Shown here: positions 3,015-58,715 of the stretch, in pieces
Numbering within the stretch: position 1 is the stretch's first letter
Layout of the letters: each line of letters starts with the position of its first letter
Source of the DNA: a phage
Reading direction: 5' to 3' (one strand)
Length of the DNA: 64,000 bases
Sequence record: OZ346182.1
Made by a program: the position numbers and the translations under genes
The notes under the pieces: generated by a model
What the model saw: only the letters and a program-made list of their open reading frames with translations
Told to the model about the DNA's origin: nothing
Databases searched by the model: none

Positions 3015-3530
3015 CTATTTAACCTCAAAAACTGGCTCAAGAACCAATATAAAGTCTACACAGTCATCTTCTTCATCCAGAACACCATCAAAGTTCTTAG
3101 GAACGAAGTCGAAGAGGCTCATAACAAAACAGTCAGAAGTGACCCTGATAGTTCCTCCCATGTTCTCTACAGTTAACACTGTACGACTTTCTTTTACCTC
3201 CCTCAGAAGATTACCCACAAAGTCATCCAAGAAGTGCTTCATCAGTGACTTAAAACCTTTAGGGTAATCTGTACCAGAGTATGTTTCAATCTGGGGAACA
3301 AGCTTAACATTTATACTAGTCTTTGTTAAGAATGTATTAGAGAACATACTATCAGGTAACTTACAAACAGTCTTTCCAGTACCTTCATGTTCAATCTCAA
3401 CAAAACCAGCTTCATCGCCACATGTAACTATTTTAAAAGATGCTTCATTCTCATACTGTGAAGCCATAAACTTTTTAAGCATCACTTTAAGGAAGTCTGC
3501 ATGAGCATCTTGTAAGAAGATATCAATCAT
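3015..3530 (-). CDS. hypothetical protein
   Basis: 171 aa ORF, no recognised motif. Confidence 0.4.
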   Translation of the reverse strand: MIDIFLQDAHADFLKVMLKKFMASQYENEASFKIVTCGDEAGFVEIEHEGTGKTVCKLPDSMFSNTFLTKTSINVKLVPQIETYSGTDYPKGFKSLMKHFLDDFVGNLLREVKESRTVLTVENMGGTIRVTSDCFVMSLFDFVPKNFDGVLDEEDDCVDFILVLEPVFEVK

Positions 3531-3543
3531 AGTTAATCACCTA

Positions 3544-3903
3544 TTATGGGAACAAGCACTTAATGTCATCGTTTTTGAAAACAAAACTTGTGTAGTTATG
3601 ACCATCAACATCCAGCCAAACAGCCTGAACATCTACACCATCAAGATTCTGGTAAAGTTCTTTGATGAAGTGGTCTTTCACAATCTGACTGCTAGTTGTT
3701 TCCAGCTTAATGTTCGAGATTGCTGAACCTACAGCCATATAGCCCATGACACGTTTCTTCTCAGTATGCTTAATCTTACCATCTTTGTAAGCCATAATGA
3801 GATTGGAAAGAATCTTTACACCATAATACTTTTCAAGGTGAGTAGGTACACCATAAAAGCCTAATGCGAAGTTTTCAGAGTGGATAATGTTTTCACGTTT
3901 CAT
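3544..3903 (-). CDS. hypothetical protein
   Basis: 119 aa ORF. Confidence 0.4.
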   Translation of the reverse strand: MKRENIIHSENFALGFYGVPTHLEKYYGVKILSNLIMAYKDGKIKHTEKKRVMGYMAVGSAISNIKLETTSSQIVKDHFIKELYQNLDGVDVQAVWLDVDGHNYTSFVFKNDDIKCLFP

Positions 3904-3904
3904 A

Positions 3905-4234
3905 TTAATCTGCCAGCCTTAAATTAAAATTAACACCAAATTTTTCGCATACTTCCAACATATACTCAAGCGAGACATTACCAGTGAGGTGGACTATGTT
4001 GGATACACGAGCTTGAGAGATACCACAAATTTTAGCAACTTGCTCTTGAGAAAGACCTCTGGATTTAATCTCTCTCTTAAAACGATGTGCAACGAAATCT
4101 CTCATTTCGTCTACATCCATTGGACAAATATAACTCTCCATTTCAGCCTCTCTGTCAGCCTCCCAATCATCTTGTGGAGCATAAGGGTCAAAAACCTCAT
4201 TCATCTTTCTTCTTCCGTTTGCGTGAAGTGTCAA
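3905..4234 (-). CDS. helix-turn-helix (XRE-like) DNA-binding protein
   Basis: C-terminal LSQEQVAKICGISQARVSNI resembles HTH_3 motif. Confidence 0.45.
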   Translation of the reverse strand: MTLHANGRRKMNEVFDPYAPQDDWEADREAEMESYICPMDVDEMRDFVAHRFKREIKSRGLSQEQVAKICGISQARVSNIVHLTGNVSLEYMLEVCEKFGVNFNLRLAD

Positions 4235-7410: not shown

Positions 7411-7944
7411 TCAACTTAGTTTTGCAAACTCTCCGTGGAGTTTAATAGCAGCTTCACAGTAAGCTTTATGGGCTTCTTCAGGTGTGTCATGGTGACCTAA
7501 AAACATCTTCTTACCTTTATAACTTATCTGTGCGACCCACTTACCAGACTTCTTCTTAAGACTTACACCCTTGTACCCAGATTTATTGGTGACCGGTTTA
7601 CCTTTATTCCAAGCACTTTGAAAATCATCTGCTTCCCTTAAGTTTACAATCCTGTTGTCAAGTGAGTCTCCGTTGATATGGTCAATGATACCTTTTGGCA
7701 TCTTGCCATACACGTAAAGCCATGCGAGTCTGTGTGCTTTATGTGCTTTCTTGTCAAAATAGATACTAACCTGTTTATGACCACTTGAATCAGTCTGGAT
7801 ATTACCTGCCACCTTTCCTGCATAATTACTGTTAAAAACACTAACAGCTCTTGATTTACCTTCTCTACGAAGCCAAGTAAAGACCCCTGTTTCGGGGTCA
7901 TAGTGCAGCAGCTCCTTTAAACGTTTTTGTAAAATTAAATCCAT
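7411..7944 (-). mobile_element. HNH homing endonuclease with AP2-like DNA-binding domain
   Basis: 177 aa; HINGDSLDNRIVNL HNH-like core and C-terminal SGYKGVS...GKWVAQISY...HHDTPEEA AP2-like; shares a 30 nt identical 5' segment with the gene at 17783. Confidence 0.75.
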
Positions 7945-7947
7945 TAA

Positions 7948-8507
7948 TCAATGTACCTCATACCAGCTCTTACCAACCTTTGCTGTACCAGTTACAAGTG
8001 TTTCTTTCCTCAAACCTAAGTTTTTTGAAGCTTGTCCATACATCCAGTCAGCAATTGCTTTCATATCATGTGTCATACCCTCTGGACATTCCCAACTATT
8101 TTCATCGTGATATGCCAGAAGTAACCTTGCTCCGATAGCTGGTTTTCGAGCATTCAGTTTTGTCAGGCCATCTTCACAGGCTTTTCTTGCTGCTAGGTTG
8201 ATGGCCTCATTCTGAATCTGTGCTTCCGAACTCATCAGGAGGTAGTTCAGTAGTTTATGTGGAGATTTGCACCATATCCATGCTCCAGCGACCCTGATAT
8301 AACCACCTTTAGCAATTGAAGAATTCTTCCCAAAAACCTCTTCCAGAGCCTTTTTAGACGCCTTAAAATCGGCTTCTAAGCTATCAAGTAACTTCTTAAT
8401 CTTTGGCAGACGCATATAGTAAGTTTGTTTAGTCAATGCACCTTCTTCCGTAGATGATGCCTTGATAGTTTTTGCAAACTTCTCGTCTCCAGCCCCGAAC
8501 AATACAT
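7948..8507 (-). CDS. DNA polymerase (family A), exon 2 / C-terminal part
   Basis: Begins FGAGDEKFAKT (second half of Pol A motif B) and contains LLAYHDENSWE (motif C); upstream boundary approximate. Confidence 0.8.
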
Positions 8508-8777
8508 CTGGTCAATACACTCGCAAGGTGTACCAGTTCTCTTATGAACTTCTCCGCATTTCTACGGAGTGTCGGACTATATCACGTAGCAGTGGTGCTA
8601 CCGTTGCACTTGGGATGGTCATTAGCTTACCACCCTACTCTACTCAGTTCATACGTTAAGTATGCTTTTCGATAGTCTCTGAACGTTCCTCTTAAGAGGC
8701 TTCGCTGCTGATTACCATATCTTTACAGACTTAGGCTTCCAGCAATTCACAACGTTTTACATGCGCCACTGACGCAT
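8508..8777 (-). ncRNA. putative group I intron interrupting DNA polymerase motif B (boundaries +/-10 nt)
   Basis: In-frame stops between exons; minus-strand elements GUUCAGAGACUAUCG (R-like) and GUGAUAUAGUCCGACA (S-like) with GACUA/UAGUC P7 pairing. Confidence 0.65.
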
Positions 8778-10944
8778 AAATGCCATTTTTGGCTTTCTTA
8801 CGACCTTTTGTAATCTCGTGGAGAAGTTCCTCATCCTGTGTCTCCCTACAACGAACAATGTCTTCTTCCTTGTTCAGACCAAAGTAAATACTATTCAGTG
8901 TATGTGCATCAGTACCTGTGTAGACTTCATAGAGGTCATTCTCAGCATCATAACGCAGATACTTGTCAGTTTCTGGGTTAAGATACTTGTCAAGATGCTT
9001 GCAGTAGTATCTACCATCATCTTGCTTAGTGAACTCAACTGACTCTTTACCCTCAGTTACCGCTTTAGTGAAGTCTTCATCACCCATAAAGTTACAAAGA
9101 AGAACTAGCTGGGCTGAGTTTTGGTCTACAGAGACAACGTTAGTACCTTCTTCACAAATCCACACCTCCCTCATAGGTGCTCCATAGACAGCAGCACCAG
9201 ACGGTACGTTTACAATACCATATTGTGTCATACGTCCAGTTGAAGTACCAAACACCATTGCACCAGCACTAAGGCGACCATCAGGACGAATCTGGTTCAA
9301 CCAACCTTTTTCATCATCTTTTGAGTTCTCAATAGTTCTACGTCGGTGCATCAAAGTATAGTACTTAGCAATCTTCTGTCCAAGCTCACCTTCAATCGTA
9401 TCATAAGATGATTCAGTAAGTTTTGGTGAAGTACGGATTAAGCAAGGCTCAAGCAAATCTGTGTATTTCTTCACAGACCAGTTATGCTCAATGTACTGGA
9501 CACCTTCATGCTCAACATAGCTCAAACCACACCGCTCAACCATTTCCTGCCACTTAGGATGCTTTGTAATCATCTTTTTATTGTCTTTGAAACGACAAAC
9601 TTTGATAGGGCGACCATCTGAGTCTTTCTTGTAATTCCAGTCATCTGGAATCCAACCAACTGATTTCAAGTAGTCTTTAACAACTGCTACCTGAGTCATA
9701 CGAGAAACTTCAAACTCAATTGGTGTATATGGTGCATCAATCAAACCTGTGTAGCGACTTGACTCAAGTTCAAAGTGGTTAACAACGTGGCTGTTATAGT
9801 ACTTCACAGTTTTGACTGTTTTTACTGGCTTCCAGTCTTTGCATTTCTTACCAATCTTTGCGTTCAACTCATTGCAAATTGCACGAGCATCCTTCATTGC
9901 TACAAAACCTTCCTTGTACTCTTCACCAGTTACAGAGTTGGTTGGTGTATAGCAATTCCTTTTTTCAATGTTAAAAATCTTTGTAGTTGGCTTACCAAAT
10001 GGTTTGATTTCGTATGTCTGCATCTCACCATTACGTACCTGCTGACGATACTTTGTCTTAGGGTACTTGGTAATTCTTTTCAGTCCATCTGCATGACCAA
10101 ATGTTTCAACATACTCATTCCAAGCTTTTGCAAACTCTTCTCCAGTGACTTTACCTTTGGTCTTAATAGTTGGAGGAAGATGTGGTTCAACCTCTGAAGC
10201 AAGCTCATTAGTCAACTTGTCAAGTTCCTTTACATGGAACTCCATAAGCTCTTTATCAGCTTTCCAACCATTAATAGCTTGTTGACTCATCCAGAAAGAT
10301 GTTTCTTTAGCTCGCATGTAGGTTTCATAAGTGTCTATGCCACACTTCTTAAGCTTGAGATACTCATTATCAAGTGCCCGTTTAGTTTTGGCGTTAATAC
10401 GGATATCTTCTACAACACGAGTGAAGATTTCTGCATTCCACACACCCCAATGTTCAATCTCTGGTTTACGAACACCAACACGAGCACCCCATGCAGCCAA
10501 GCCATGAGCACCTTTATAACCCTTTGGAGTTGGTCTATCCATCCACTGAACACGAGACTGGATAAGAGAATCCTGAAAGAAATTACTCCACGGCTTACAC
10601 TTTGGATTATCAAAGTTCCATAAATCCGGTGCAATGTGATTGAAAACCCACCAGTCATAACCTAGACCATTATGAATGCAAAGACGTTTTGCCTTTAACG
10701 CAAACTCAACACCTTCACGTAAGCCACCCTTAATGTACTTGGTATACTTGTGACCGAGGATAGGCTCATCTGTAAAGACCCATACAGGCGGCTCTTTATC
10801 GTCAGATTTATAGTCTGCGAAAGCCATTACGTGCACTTTAGTGAACTCAAGGAGTAAACCATCAGTTTCTGTATCACCAACTAAATGTAAGTTTTTAAAA
10901 TCTACGTTTTCCATTTTTACTCCCTCTAAAATCATTAACCTCAT
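8778..10944 (-). CDS. DNA polymerase (family A), exon 1 with 3'-5' exonuclease domain
   Basis: N-terminal DTETDGL exo motif; VDQNSAQLVLL motif A-like; ends RKKAKNGIY (first half of motif B) before the intervening sequence. Confidence 0.85.
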
Positions 10945-22763: not shown

Positions 22764-23021
22764 ATGAAAGATTTAATAGAAAAACATGAGCGACCTATAT
22801 ACTTGCTCCACAAGCCTCGGAAAACGATGTACTATGTGAGTAGCACAGACATGATGATAAAACAAAATGATGACTCATGGGTTGCTGGTATCTCTTACAT
22901 CTCTACAGCAGATGGTAAAATCTATGCAAGACCTTATGAGATGTTTAACAAAGAAAATTGGGAAGTTTTAGACAGAAAACAAGCCTTAGAAATGATAAAG
23001 AAAGGAGAAATCACACTATGA
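22764..23021 (+). CDS. hypothetical protein
   Basis: ATG at 22764 within ORF 22680-23021. Confidence 0.3.
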   Translation: MKDLIEKHERPIYLLHKPRKTMYYVSSTDMMIKQNDDSWVAGISYISTADGKIYARPYEMFNKENWEVLDRKQALEMIKKGEITL

Positions 23022-24091
23022 TTAACCAGCACCCAATCTTTTTAGGTGGTGAGAGAAAAACTTTTGACTCACTTAATAAACACTACCCAAAAATCTTTGA
23101 GCTTTATAAGCAACAAAAAGCACAAGACTGGTCAGAAGATGAGTTCCCTTTTGAACAATCACGTCTTGATTTTGAGAGTGTCCCAGCATCAATGTCAGGT
23201 GTAATGCTTGAGATTCTTAAGTGGCAGTGGGAAGCAGATACCCAAGTTGCTAAGAGCTTGGCATTTGCCTTTGCACCATTTATCTCTGATGACATCTATG
23301 CAACTGCAATTATGAAGCAGTCTGAGATTGAAAACCTACATGCTCTTACTTACTCAGAGATTGTAAGGCAATGTATTAAAAACCCTGAAACAATCTTAGA
23401 TGAGATTAACCAGAATGTTGCTGTGCAAGACCGATTAAAAACTGTGAATCGTGTTCTTGAAGAATTACTGGATGAAGGTATAAACTATCGTCTGAATTAT
23501 GTTCGTGATTCACTTCTGGACAAAGACCCTTTACACTTCCATAAAGTGATTCTGAAAGGGCTGTTTGCAGTGACTGCACTTGAAGGTATATCTTTTATGG
23601 CATCATTTGCATGTACTTTTGCACTTGATGCTCAAGATAAATTTCAGGGTATTGCTCAAGCTGTCCAGAAAATTATGCTTGATGAAATCCTTCACACTAA
23701 AATTGATATTGAAGTTTTAAAAGAAACTTTAAGAGATGATGAGTGGCAGAAAGCTTTTCAACAGATTCTTCCAGAGATTAAAGTAATCTTAGATGAAGTA
23801 GTTGAAAGTGAAGAGAAATGGTCGTATTATATCTTCTCCGAAGGACGTGCTGTAGTTGGCTTAAATACAAAGCTTCTTCATGAGTGGGTTTACTATAATG
23901 CTGCCCCACTGTATGATATGTTTGGCATTCCCAGAGATTTTGTAGCTCCTAAAGAACCACCTTTGAAGTACATGATTAAGAAGATGGAAATTGATAAAGA
24001 GCAGAATGCTAATCAGGAGCAACAGAACGGTGCGTACCTATTGAATACTGTTGTAGATGATTTGAATAGTGGATTTTTAGAGGTTCCTTAA
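23018..24091 (+). CDS. nrdB: ribonucleotide reductase class Ia small subunit
   Basis: ATG 23018 after AAAGGAGAAA; ALEGISFMASFA di-iron/tyrosyl region. Confidence 0.9.
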   Translation: MINQHPIFLGGERKTFDSLNKHYPKIFELYKQQKAQDWSEDEFPFEQSRLDFESVPASMSGVMLEILKWQWEADTQVAKSLAFAFAPFISDDIYATAIMKQSEIENLHALTYSEIVRQCIKNPETILDEINQNVAVQDRLKTVNRVLEELLDEGINYRLNYVRDSLLDKDPLHFHKVILKGLFAVTALEGISFMASFACTFALDAQDKFQGIAQAVQKIMLDEILHTKIDIEVLKETLRDDEWQKAFQQILPEIKVILDEVVESEEKWSYYIFSEGRAVVGLNTKLLHEWVYYNAAPLYDMFGIPRDFVAPKEPPLKYMIKKMEIDKEQNANQEQQNGAYLLNTVVDDLNSGFLEVP

Positions 24092-24580: not shown

Positions 24581-25777
24581 ATGAACAAAGTACAGATTAT
24601 TAAAAAGAATGGCTCACTTGAAGAACCTGATATCAAAAAAGTTTTAGCAGCAGTCACAAAGTCAGCTAACAGAGTTGGTTATAAAGAGCTTCCACCAGAT
24701 GTTACTCAAGCTCTTGAGTCAGCATTTATGAGGATTCTGGTAAAGTCCACTAAGCAGAATAATTTGCTAATTTCGGTAAATGATATTCACAGTATTGTTG
24801 AGGGTGCTTTGGCAGAAGTCAATCACGAGATTTATGAGTCTTACTCAACATATAGAAATTACCGTAAAGAGGTTGCTCAAAATTGGGATGAACTCTACCA
24901 GAAGACCAAAGATACACTCTTCTTAGGCGACCGAGAAAACGCTAATTTTGACAGCAGTTTAATTTCTACAAAAGGCTCAATTATTCGTGGTTACCTGACT
25001 AAAGAAATCTTTAAACAGTACCATTTAACACCAGAGGAACTTGAAGCCATTGAAAAAGGATTTATCTATATCCATGATTTAAGAGACCTAATTTTTGGTG
25101 GTATCAACTGTTGCCTGTTTGACATTGGTAAAGTCCTGAAAGGTGGCTTTGAAATGTCTGGCATTGAATATTGTGAACCGAAGTCTGTGCTGTCAGCCTT
25201 ACAGGTTATTGGTGATGTAGTTCTTTCAGCAACTGCACAGCAATTTGGTGGCTTTACTTTAGCAGAGATTGATAAGGTACTTGTACCGTATGCTAAGAAG
25301 TCTCTACGTTACCATGCTGAAAAAGCAACAGCTTATGGTATTCCTAAAGAACATTACCACAACTATGTCATGGAGCAGCTACAGATTGAATTAACTCAAG
25401 GTTTTCAGTCTCTTGAAATGAAGCTCAATACTGTGCCTTGTAGCCGTGGTGATTTTGCATTCACAACTTTGACATTCGGGTTACTTGACTCAGATATGTC
25501 TAATGAAGATAACCGACTGCAATACATGATTGCGAGCACTCTCCTAGATGTTCGTATGAATGGACAAGGTAAGAGCAAGAAACCTGTTGTATTCCCTAAA
25601 CTGGTTTATATTTATGACCAGAAGAGACACAATGAGAATATCTGTCAAGGCCACCTGTACAGTAAAGCTATTGAGTGTTGCTCTAAAGCTATGTATCCAG
25701 ATTTCTTAAGTGTATCTGGACATGGTGCTGTAGCAGAGGCTTTTGAGCGTTCTGGCAAGGTAATTTCCCCGATGGGT
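24581..25777 (+). CDS. nrdD: anaerobic ribonucleotide reductase NrdD, exon 1
   Basis: ATP-cone N-terminus; exon ends ...VISPMG (GGU) immediately before the intron. Confidence 0.9.
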
Positions 25778-26093
25778 TAACAAGCTCTATAGCTCATCTA
25801 AAACGTGCCTAAACAGGGAAACTCTACAGATGTAGACAATCCTGTGCTAAATGATGTACGATGTAAGAAACTATACAACATAGGAGTCTTACATGCCAAA
25901 TAACTTCGAATATGAGTTTGAATACATCTAAATGCCGAACGACTAACCGTGATGAATGTAGCGGTGTAGGGTCAAGCGACTCGAAATGGTACGCTACTTA
26001 GAAATAAGTAGAAGATATAGTCTGGACTTACTGGCGACAGTAAGCAGCTTGAATAAAGCGGGGTAAGCTTAGCGAACTTACTTGAACAACAAG
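25778..26093 (+). ncRNA. group I intron in nrdD (316 nt, no ORF)
   Basis: Exon 1 ends in U, intron ends in G; splicing restores conserved PMG-CRAFL; contains AAACAGGGAAACUCUACAGAUGUAGACAAUCCUGUGCUAAAUG (very like T4 td intron), R-like GAACGACUAA and S-like AAGAUAUAGUCU. Confidence 0.85.
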
Positions 26094-27041
26094 TGTAGAG
26101 CATTTTTATCACCATACCATAACGAACATGGTGAAGAGTTTTATGTAGGTCGTGCTAACATTGGTGCTGTATCTTTGAACTTACCAATGATTTATCAGTA
26201 CACCAAAGAGAATGGCTTAGATTTCTGGAAAGAGCTTGATAAGTACCTAGAAATGATTCGCAGCTTCCACAAGAAACGTTACGAAATGATTGCTAATATG
26301 CCAGCAAGTTCTAACCCTCTTGCATTCACACAGGGTGGTCTGTACAAAGGGAATAAGAAACCTACTGACAAGGTTGGCTGGGATATCGTGAAGTCCTTCA
26401 CAGCTTCTTTTGGGGTTACTGCGCTTGATGAGCTATCTGTTCTTGCTGAAGGTAAACGACTCCATGAAGTTGGAAGCTGTAGTTTTGCATATGATGTTCT
26501 GGCATACATTAACATGAAAACTGAAGAGTTTAAGAACGAAGATGGCTTCTTGTATGCGGTATATGGCACTCCAGCAGAATCACTTTGTGGAACTCAGTTA
26601 AAACAGTTCAGAGATATGTTTGGCGTTATTAAAGGTGTCTCTGACAAGGAATACTTTACAAACAGTTTCCATATGAATGTTGCAGCAGACATCTCACCAT
26701 TTGAGAAGCAGGACTTAGAAGAGCCATTCTTCCATATCTGTAGAGGTGGTAGAATCCAGTATGTAAGGGTAGCTAACCCAGAAAACTTAACAGCACTTAA
26801 AAGTTGTATTACAAGAGGGATGTTGAAAGGTTTCTATCAGGGGCTTAACTTTGACTTAGCAATCTGTGAACATTGTGGTAACAGACCAAAGGCTGATGTT
26901 GAAGAATGTGAGGTTTGCCATTCACATGATATCTCTGTGATTAACAGGGTGTGCGGGTACTTGTCATTCACAAAAATTAAAGGTCAGTCTCGAATGAATG
27001 ACGCTAAGATGGCAGAAATTAAGGATAGGGTTTCTATGTAA
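26094..27041 (+). CDS. nrdD: anaerobic ribonucleotide reductase NrdD, exon 2
   Basis: Begins CRAFLSPY; glycyl-radical motif RVCGYL; zinc ribbon CEHCG...CEVC. Confidence 0.9.
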   Translation, partial: CRAFLSPYHNEHGEEFYVGRANIGAVSLNLPMIYQYTKENGLDFWKELDKYLEMIRSFHKKRYEMIANMPASSNPLAFTQGGLYKGNKKPTDKVGWDIVKSFTASFGVTALDELSVLAEGKRLHEVGSCSFAYDVLAYINMKTEEFKNEDGFLYAVYGTPAESLCGTQLKQFRDMFGVIKGVSDKEYFTNSFHMNVAADISPFEKQDLEEPFFHICRGGRIQYVRVANPENLTALKSCITRGMLKGFYQGLNFDLAICEHCGNRPKADVEECEVCHSHDISVINRVCGYLSFTKIKGQSRMNDAKMAEIKDRVSM

Positions 27042-58631: not shown

Positions 58632-58708
58632 CTCTGTTTAGCTCAGCTTGGTAGAGCGTTCCGTTTGGGGCGGTAAGGCCGGAGGTTCAAGTCCTCCAAC
58701 AGAGACCA
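58632..58708 (+). tRNA. tRNA-Pro (anticodon UGG)
   Basis: Cloverleaf with GGTTCAAGTCC T-arm, anticodon loop TTTGGGG, CCA encoded. Confidence 0.7.
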
Positions 58709-58715
58709 AATTAAT

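Follow-up and report, generated by a model that had tools for sequence, protein, structure and literature searches.

A T4-like group I intron, predicted to have lost its homing endonuclease gene, before the catalytic cysteine codon of nrdD in a Felix O1-like phage

We analyzed a 64,000-nucleotide (nt) stretch of phage DNA (sequence record OZ346182.1; hereafter the window, with position 1 its first letter) in which the anaerobic ribonucleotide reductase gene nrdD is interrupted by a 316-nt group I intron at positions 25778 to 26093. An earlier reading of the letters alone (the original prediction) had placed an intron at these positions, and it was borne out by a match to the Rfam group I model RF00028, by intron-less alleles in related phages, by pairing of an internal guide with both exons, and by a covarying fold. 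A predicted group I intron with splice sites after U25777 and G26093, and with no endonuclease gene, is the core reading, and all the computational tests that could be applied support it. Computation gave directly the boundaries, the covarying fold, the guide-exon complementarity, a deletion that removed the endonuclease gene, and an exon tract linked to intron presence. We consider it highly probable that the element is a mobile IA2 group I intron of the T4-like type whose homing endonuclease gene has been lost and which splices nrdD by the mechanism set out below; from its sequence, self-splicing is very likely.

24581..25777, + strand: nrdD exon 1; 399 codons; ATP-cone and first half of the NrdD barrel; ends ...VISPMG
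25778..26093, + strand: predicted group I (IA2-type) intron; 316 nt; in-frame UAA first, terminal G (omega-G, 26093) last
26094..27041, + strand: nrdD exon 2; 315 codons and stop; opens with the Cys-loop cysteine codon UGU

Intron boundaries and the restored reading frame

As originally predicted, the nrdD frame is broken after ...VISPMG: the exon 1 open reading frame (ORF) runs from 24581 to 25777, and the next triplet, 25778-25780, is an in-frame TAA. Joining U25777 to position 26094, which follows G26093, restores the motif PMG-CRAFL, also as proposed, since the sequence from 26094 onward (TGT AGA GCA TTT TTA) reads CRAFL. The joined coding sequence (CDS) is in frame and its product is 714 amino acids (aa) long. 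Alignment of this spliced protein with three solved NrdD structures leaves no gap over the junction, where the query reads ISPMGCRAFLS, T4 NrdD (1h78) reads VSPMGCRSFLS, and 9d3x reads APMGCRSFLQ. Pfam places an ATP-cone and NRDD profile positions 1-250 in exon 1, and NRDD profile positions 264-560 and the glycyl-radical domain (Gly_radical) in exon 2.

A 600-nt query made from the spliced junction matched 243 records, many of them as a single ungapped 600-nt piece; those records therefore hold intron-less alleles. The intron-less phage ekra, for example, reads CCGATGGGT up to the junction and TGCAGAGCC after it, so that ATGGGT meets TGC precisely where the junction was predicted and no base is gained or lost. 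The Rfam/Infernal search returned RF00028 at 54.6 bits (gathering threshold, 50; E = 4.3e-11 over the whole window and 5.4e-13 in a local search).

The insertion site aligns with the boundary between G289 and C290 of T4 NrdD (residue 290 from tblastn coordinates), and Cys290 of T4 NrdD is the thiyl-radical cysteine. The intron stands immediately before the catalytic Cys-loop cysteine codon; in glycyl radical enzymes, this essential cysteine lies on a Cys loop between two half-barrels (PMC13450708).

Internal guide and ribozyme fold

The elements of the predicted RNA, apart from the P6a loop, are as follows; the two core halves are drawn from the Rfam alignment, RNAalifold, and pair counts.

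25784..25798, + strand: internal guide (intron nt 7-21); P10 strand GCUCUAUA (25784-25791) abutting P1 strand GCUCAUC (25792-25798)
25804..25858, + strand: 5' half of the core
25804-09, + strand: P3 5' strand, CGUGCC
25813-18 and 25840-45, + strand: P4, ACAGGG/UCCUGU
25823-27 and 25832-36, + strand: P5, UCUAC/GUAGA
25846-47, + strand: P6, GC
25853-58, + strand: P6a 5' strand, GAUGUA
25923..26044, + strand: 3' half of the core, with P6a' UACAUC, P6' GC, P7.1 ACCG/CGGU, and P7.2 GGGUC/GACUC
25988-93, + strand: P3' GGUACG; the same half holds P8 CUACUUA/UAAGUAG and J8/7 AAGAUA
26027-44, + strand: P9, CUUACUG/CAGUAAG
26045..26093, + strand: peripheral 3' domain, past the end of the Rfam alignment (RNAalifold and pair counts)
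26047-59, + strand: P9.1, GCUU/AAGC
26063-81, + strand: P9.2, GUAAG/CUUAC, followed by the tail UUGAACAACAAG ending in omega-G26093

P1 is a 7-bp helix formed by the end of exon 1, GAUGGGU (25771-25777), and the internal guide sequence (IGS) GCUCAUC (intron nt 15-21), including a wobble between U25777 and G25792. P10 is an 8-bp helix between GCUCUAUA (intron nt 7-14) and the start of exon 2, UGUAGAGC (26094-26101). Full pairing with either guide segment is found at just 2 of the 2,138 positions of the spliced CDS. Complementarity is kept in homologues from three other phage groups whose letters differ: in HMD-6, P1 joins exon CAUGGGU to IGS GCUCAUG, a swap from G-C to C-G relative to the window; in Vibrio phage F95, the guide GAUUGGCA is entirely unlike that of the window, yet it is complementary to the 3' exon UGCCGAUC; and in Aeromonas phage 4L372XY, where the guide is again entirely different, P10 joins UACAAU to the guide AUUGUA. 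The terminal intron base is G in all nine homologues used for the fold.

These nine sequences (the window, RPN213, Si3, HMD-6, navn, SD2, F95, the T4-type td intron of RB6, and 4L372XY) were aligned with MAFFT after the P6a loop had been trimmed, with short exon flanks retained. Given no prior structure, RNAalifold recovered P1, P3, P4, P5, P6/P6a, P7.1, P8, P9, P9.1, and P9.2, with compensatory changes in 32 of 69 pairs. P7, which makes a pseudoknot with P3, and three P7.2 pairs were added before pairs were counted. In the MAFFT alignment the 3' exon is out of register, as are parts of P5, P7.2, and P8; P1 and P10 were computed for each sequence separately, and just three P7.2 pairs were counted. 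In the resulting structure, 97.3% of 623 cells hold standard pairs, against 34 to 42% in slid controls, in which the 3' partners were shifted by 1 to 3 columns. Double-sided changes occur in 33 of the 70 pairs (2 to 9 in slid controls), and the covariation score is 0.485 (at most 0.099 in slid controls and 0.19 in shuffles, with none of 500 shuffles as high). P3, P8, and P9 hold three to four compensatory pairs each, P9.1 three, and P9.2 four, and P7.2 covaries to GGGUGU/ACACUC in HMD-6 and to GGACAC/GUGUUC in 4L372XY.

The segments GACUA (25941-25945) and UAGUC (26018-26022), whose pairing had been noticed at the outset, do occur, and the Rfam alignment pairs them as P7; P3 and P7 together make the group I pseudoknot, and the conserved R and S sequences (P7, J8/7) are in place. 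Folded alone, the window intron has a minimum free energy (MFE) of -88.2 kcal/mol (z = -3.27), and this fold holds the same helices. There is no P2. The helices P7.1, P7.2, and P9.1/P9.2 are a hallmark of IA2 introns in the classification of Michel and Westhof, and by its predicted P7.1/P7.2 and P9.1/P9.2 the window intron is placed in the T4-like IA2 subgroup.

Loss of an HNH homing endonuclease gene

25859..25922, + strand: P6a loop with remains of the HNH gene
25861-67 and 25888-94, + strand: hairpin, AUGUAAG/CUUACAU
25882-86, + strand: Shine-Dalgarno sequence (SD), AGGAG
25893..25931, + strand: relic ORF, MPNNFEYEFEYI and stop, running into the P6a 3' strand

The intron had been described as ORF-less. 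This stands insofar as it contains no endonuclease gene; it needs amending in that the deleted HNH gene has left a relic ORF of 12 codons at 25893..25931. Many relatives carry the same 316 nt spread over 742 nt. In Salmonella phage Si3, the extra 426 nt lie inside the P6a loop, where they make up the rest of an ORF of 154 aa with the Pfam domain HNH_3, and Meda and others are alike. Read directly from the sequences and confirmed by script, the deletion in the window is 426 nt long and in frame, with the junction ATGCCAAA followed by TAACTTCG. The window keeps AGGAG, the ATG (25893), the first two and two-thirds codons, and the last nine codons and stop of the HNH gene. By comparison with these relatives, the ORF-less state is a derived one, reached through deletion of the HNH gene. 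The copy in the window is not autonomously mobile, because the HNH_3 ORF of its relatives has been deleted and just the 12-codon relic is left, whereas the family as a whole is mobile.

All four 316-nt alleles that were examined (window, REP11, EC6, and S19cd) share one deletion junction, so that the 426-nt deletion arose once. The relic is gathering substitutions; REP11 is without the SD and S19cd has several changes. The intron of RPN213 is 292 nt long and carries a different deletion, in which the SD and ATG are gone as well; it is an independent loss of the HNH gene. In EC106, a +1 frameshift cuts the HNH protein to 90 aa. The genus thus offers a compact natural series of the homing endonuclease life cycle at one site, with empty, intact, and frameshifted states and two independent deletions.

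A separate case is Salmonella phage ST11 (MF370225; locus positions 1795-1810), which has a 322-nt deletion in nrdD. It retains the TAA of the intron and lacks the remaining intron and 9 nt from the start of exon 2, among them the codon for the catalytic Cys. Either nrdD is dead (inactivated) in this phage or the deletion is an assembly artefact.

Distribution in Felixounavirus and a linked 3'-exon tract

About 94 of the 243 Felixounavirus records are intron-bearing, as judged from the 94 records that hold 80% or more of the intron. Among 60 evenly spaced records of the 243, the intron was missing from about 34, 15 had the HNH gene, 8 had the 316-nt form, and the RPN213 and ST11 types occurred once each. 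We then compared the exon flanks, 300 nt on each side, between 10 alleles with the intron and 6 without it. The 5' flank has 90 variable sites, none of which separates the two classes, and a between-class divergence of 6.8%; positions +55 to +300 of the 3' exon likewise have no class-separating site and a divergence of 3.6%. The first 54 nt of the 3' exon differ.

26094..26147, + strand: 3'-exon tract linked to intron presence (+1 to +54, 54 nt); putative co-conversion tract and/or HNH recognition region

Within this tract there are 19 variable sites, a between-class divergence of 22.8%, and 5 perfectly class-discriminating sites, all at +18 to +54. Most of the changes are synonymous; one residue differs, being His in intron-bearing alleles and Phe or Leu in intron-less ones. 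P10 needs a U at +3; all 10 intron-bearing alleles have it, and 5 of 6 intron-less ones do not (SP22 keeps T). In this 16-allele panel there is therefore a presence/absence polymorphism at one exact site together with a strictly linked 54-nt haplotype. A short stretch of exon tied to the intron, on backbones that otherwise show no such structure, is the expected product of co-conversion in homing driven by an endonuclease. We infer that the tract may have this origin, and it may also mark the HNH recognition region; as a candidate co-conversion or target tract, it is sharply bounded.

Proposed mechanism

In the mechanism that we propose, nrdD would be transcribed as a single pre-mRNA, on which ribosomes translating exon 1 would halt at the UAA formed by the first three bases of the intron. 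The intron would fold into its P3-P9 core with the P7.1/P7.2 and P9.1/P9.2 extensions, and its guide (nt 7-21) would hold the last 7 nt of exon 1 as P1 and the first 8 nt of exon 2 as P10. A free guanosine bound at P7 would attack after U25777, and the freed 3'-OH of exon 1 would then attack after G26093; the exons would be ligated, which would restore ...Pro-Met-Gly followed by Cys-Arg-Ala... and the 714-aa NrdD.

The ancestral intron would have carried the HNH gene in its P6a loop, and the enzyme would have cut intron-less nrdD alleles in mixed infections, so that homing would copy the intron and about 54 nt of downstream exon into the cut alleles. In the lineage of the window, one in-frame deletion of 426 nt would have removed the HNH gene, leaving the intron a passive passenger that must still splice. 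Having both an interrupted target and an altered 3' flank, this copy probably shields the phage that carries it against the endonuclease that related phages encode. Immunity, like catalysis and like cleavage and homing by the HNH enzyme, is put forward here as a reading of sequence.

Weighing the evidence and its alternatives

Several points count against the interpretation as a functional, formerly mobile intron. The RF00028 score is just 4.6 bits over the gathering threshold, and the ends that Rfam gives (25663..26044) were rejected, as the model forces its P1/P2 onto exon 1 and its alignment goes no further than P9; in the core, from P3 to P9, that alignment is sound. P7 is invariant over the nine homologues, which leaves conservation and the covariance model (CM) as its support. 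The covariation set is small, at nine sequences from about six independent lineages, and the structure that was scored came partly from the same alignment, so that the contrast with the slid controls is inflated. The 3'-exon tract could be a recombinant block inherited from a common ancestor and not a product of endonuclease-driven co-conversion, and the phylogeny of the sample was uncontrolled, so that the Fisher p of 5e-6 for the association overstates independence. The literature that we searched holds no splicing experiment on any member, no structural analysis, and no explicit description of an ORF-less allele.

It is unlikely that the intron is a decayed, non-splicing element in a pseudogene, with nrdD non-functional and the phage relying on its class Ia reductase. 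The endonuclease gene is indeed already gone, the Rfam score barely passes its threshold, and the ST11 deletion would suggest that nrdD is dispensable, unless that record is mis-assembled. However, all core helices are intact in the window, and the ribozyme parts are 98 to 100% identical among intron-bearing Felixounaviruses while the relic ORF decays in REP11 and S19cd, which argues for purifying selection on the RNA and not on the ORF remnant. Moreover, both exons keep long ORFs with full Pfam NRDD coverage, nrdG is intact, and the U that P10 requires at +3 is found in all intron-bearing alleles and lacking in five of six intron-less ones. Most GenBank records show two separate nrdD CDSs, as would be expected if the halves were translated separately, without RNA splicing, and assembled into an active enzyme; such assembly has been reported for NrdA of Aeromonas phage Aeh1, which is split by the free-standing endonuclease gene mobE, and split yet functional phage ribonucleotide reductase genes have been described (PMC3653736). 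For nrdD we find such an arrangement very hard to credit, as exon 2 has no plausible start (the lone in-frame start before the Cys codon is a TTG at 26082, in the intron tail, with no SD) and the annotated second CDS begins at least 27 codons downstream and loses the catalytic cysteine. The break also interrupts the Cys loop at its tip, and this loop is buried between the half-barrels (PMC13450708); moreover, a complete covarying ribozyme with guides for both exons would be needless for a free-standing insertion.

Almost no probability attaches to the same intron using other splice sites, with its 3' end at Rfam's G26044 or another nearby G. The Rfam alignment does end at G26044, past P9, but joining 25777 to 26045 would add 49 nt and break the frame; intron-less alleles give 26094 as the first exon base, and the P10 partner is 26094-26101. 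The segment 26045-26093 (P9.1/P9.2) is, in addition, conserved, covaries as structure, and is homologous to the 3' domain of the td intron.

The phage and its nrdD locus

A megablast search of 25400-26500 against the phage collection matched 311 records at identities of up to 98.5%. Nearly all are Felix O1-like myoviruses (Ounavirinae, Felixounavirus) whose hosts are Salmonella, E. coli, Shigella, and Citrobacter. By these matches, the window phage is a Felix O1-like phage (Felixounavirus). The local gene order (nrdB-like, glutaredoxin, small membrane protein, nrdD, three small ORFs, and nrdG) is the same as in annotated relatives. The small subunit of a class Ia reductase (NrdB type) is encoded upstream of nrdD at 22958..24091, and the nrdG downstream is the intact gene referred to above. 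Between nrdD and nrdG, Si3 has an extra homing-endonuclease-like ORF with a NUMOD3 motif (3498..4055 of its locus); this ORF is not in the window, where three small ORFs fill the same interval. Rfam further identified 24 tRNA genes clustered at 58632..63553 on the + strand of the window; the Felix O1 paper gives 22 tRNAs (PMC3185647), which makes such a cluster ordinary for the group. Records named as "Campylobacter phage" (A132, A126, A13b, and A110a) and "Staphylococcus phage SA1" hold a Felixounavirus or Vequintavirus-like nrdD at 93 to 99% identity, which suggests that these are mislabelled or chimeric database entries.

The window has a second group I intron, at 8505..8771 on the minus strand, which is 267 nt long and ORF-less and matches RF00028 at 61.7 bits (8552..8834). 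It splits a family A DNA polymerase gene within motif B. Spliced after U8772 (P1 AUGCGU/GCGCAU) and G8505, the gene reads KNGIYALLFGAGD, exactly as in phage ph2-2, whose allele has no intron. This intron is polymorphic in the genus, where the same query spans 771 nt or 503 nt, and it matches an HNH-less polymerase intron mentioned for phage Meda (PMC6486253). Directly downstream of polymerase exon 2, at 7411..7944 on the minus strand, is a separate ORF of 177 aa in which HNH_3 and AP2 domains are recognized; it is probably a free-standing homing endonuclease beside the intron-bearing polymerase gene.

Same-site introns in unrelated phages

Four other phages have a homologous intron, with a homologous HNH gene, at this Gly-Cys boundary of nrdD: the Vequintavirus-like HMD-6 and navn, the Justusliebigvirus SD2, and Vibrio phage F95. 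Compared over the full length with the HNH protein of Si3, theirs show 49% and 40% identity and are encoded in the same loop; a C-terminal motif common to all of them is still encoded by the relic in the window. The presence of the same intron-HNH pair at one site in unrelated phages suggests that the two moved as a unit to one precise target. Four unrelated phage groups have this unit of intron and homing endonuclease gene (HEG) at the codon of the catalytic cysteine, which adds to a pattern of mobile introns at the most conserved codons of ribonucleotide reductase.

When the loci of HMD-6, navn, SD2, and F95 were scanned with Rfam at the gathering threshold, none gave a match. Because it is blind to these loci, such a scan is unusable as a census of HNH-bearing copies: Rfam detects the ORF-less copies and misses the HNH-bearing ones, and its boundaries are wrong even where it matches.

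Further nrdD introns, of another sequence type, occur in navn (about 881-1146, after ...NG near window residue 290) and in F95 (about 725-1883, after ...QFG near residue 227). Taken with the T4 site and the Cys-loop site, these bring the sites at which introns have entered phage nrdD to four or more, and the gene is an intron hotspot. A 300-nt ORF-less relative was also seen in the large terminase gene of Aeromonas phage 4L372XY (1895..2194); it has the same P7.1 loop, but P2 is present.

Previous reports and annotation

The Felix O1 genome paper reports no introns (PMC3185647), so that the intron is presumably missing from the type phage. For UAB_Phi87, HB-2014, and JH2, a "split nrdD" with a homing endonuclease gene as the interruption has been described, citing Moreno Switt 2013 (PMC4837284), and the announcement of Meda states that an HNH gene interrupts nrdD and that "another intron," without HNH, lies in the DNA polymerase gene (PMC6486253). 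In GenBank, the nrdD of Meda is a joined CDS and the HNH ORF of EC106 is labelled "Phage intron." This kind of intron has been known since the work on T4 and has been recognised in passing in the genus; the present case fits existing theory and leaves the understanding of group I introns unchanged. For annotation, it means that nrdD in the window phage and in about 90 deposited Felixounavirus genomes should be one joined CDS (714 aa) and not two "NrdD-like" fragments flanking hypothetical proteins.

Comparison with known introns

One close system is the HNH-bearing Felixounavirus form (Si3, Meda, Mushroom, JH2, UAB_Phi87, and others), which occupies the same site, has a ribozyme 98 to 99.7% identical, and carries the same 54-nt 3'-exon haplotype. 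It is 742 nt long with an intact 154-aa HNH ORF, whereas the window copy is 426 nt shorter. The introns of HMD-6, navn, SD2, and F95 have homologous ribozymes, about 71 to 79% identical in the alignable parts; they differ in belonging to unrelated phage lineages, in having guides fitted to different exons, and in retaining the HNH ORF throughout.

T4 has an intron in the same gene, and it had been left open at the outset whether the position was conserved or independently targeted. The T4 nrdD CDS is a two-piece join enclosing I-TevII, with UUAUGAGU before the junction and UAACGUAAG after it (AFQAYE followed by YEVNT), that is, between codons 179 and 180 (E179 and Y180), which match window residue ~280. 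The window site is about 110 T4 codons, or 120 window codons, downstream, which refutes a conserved position; independent targeting is the alternative that fits.

The original prediction had also likened a segment of the intron to the 5' region of the T4 td intron. The likeness is real (intron nt 32-75 are 82% identical to the td intron), but td cannot stand as the sole named relative, as the T4 nrdD ribozyme is at least as close. A database search had given td as the closest T4 intron; this candidate was dropped when direct blastn showed the T4 nrdD core to be at least as similar and the guide to be shared. The T4 nrdD (sunY) intron is 82% identical to window intron nt 14-75 and 77% to nt 152-262. 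Its guide is GCUCAUG (GCUCAUC in the window) and its 5' exon ends in UAUGAGU (GAUGGGU in the window). Like the window intron, it has no P2, has the P7.1 loop GAUGAAUGUA, and starts with UAAC. It is 1,033 nt long, against 316 nt, and its endonuclease is the GIY-YIG enzyme I-TevII, encoded 3' of the core, whereas the window family has an HNH gene in the P6a loop. Self-splicing of the T4 nrdD intron is established.

Both nrdD target sites, AUGAGU in T4 and AUGGGU in the window, fit the shared guide GCUCAU, which, speculatively, is compatible with a site-to-site move that needs guide complementarity. We entertain as a doubtful but not negligible idea that the Cys-loop and T4 nrdD introns descend from one ribozyme, which would have moved between the two nrdD sites by guide-directed reverse splicing and not by an endonuclease, and that the two lineages would then have gained different cassettes (a GIY-YIG gene in the 3' domain in one and an HNH gene in P6a in the other). 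As a corollary, the HEG-less copy would persist as an immunity allele against HNH-armed relatives in co-infection. Competition through intron endonucleases has been shown for PhiPA3 and PhiKZ (PMC11620839).

The T4 td intron (I-TevI, IA2) has the same core and the P9, P9.1, and P9.2 domain, with 71% identity to window intron nt 152-311. It shares with the window family an ORF in the P6 loop, a UAA right after the 5' splice site, and a 5' exon ending in GGGU, and it differs in its host gene (thymidylate synthase), in having a P2 hairpin and a P7.1 of UCCC/GGGA with a short loop, and in encoding a GIY-YIG endonuclease.

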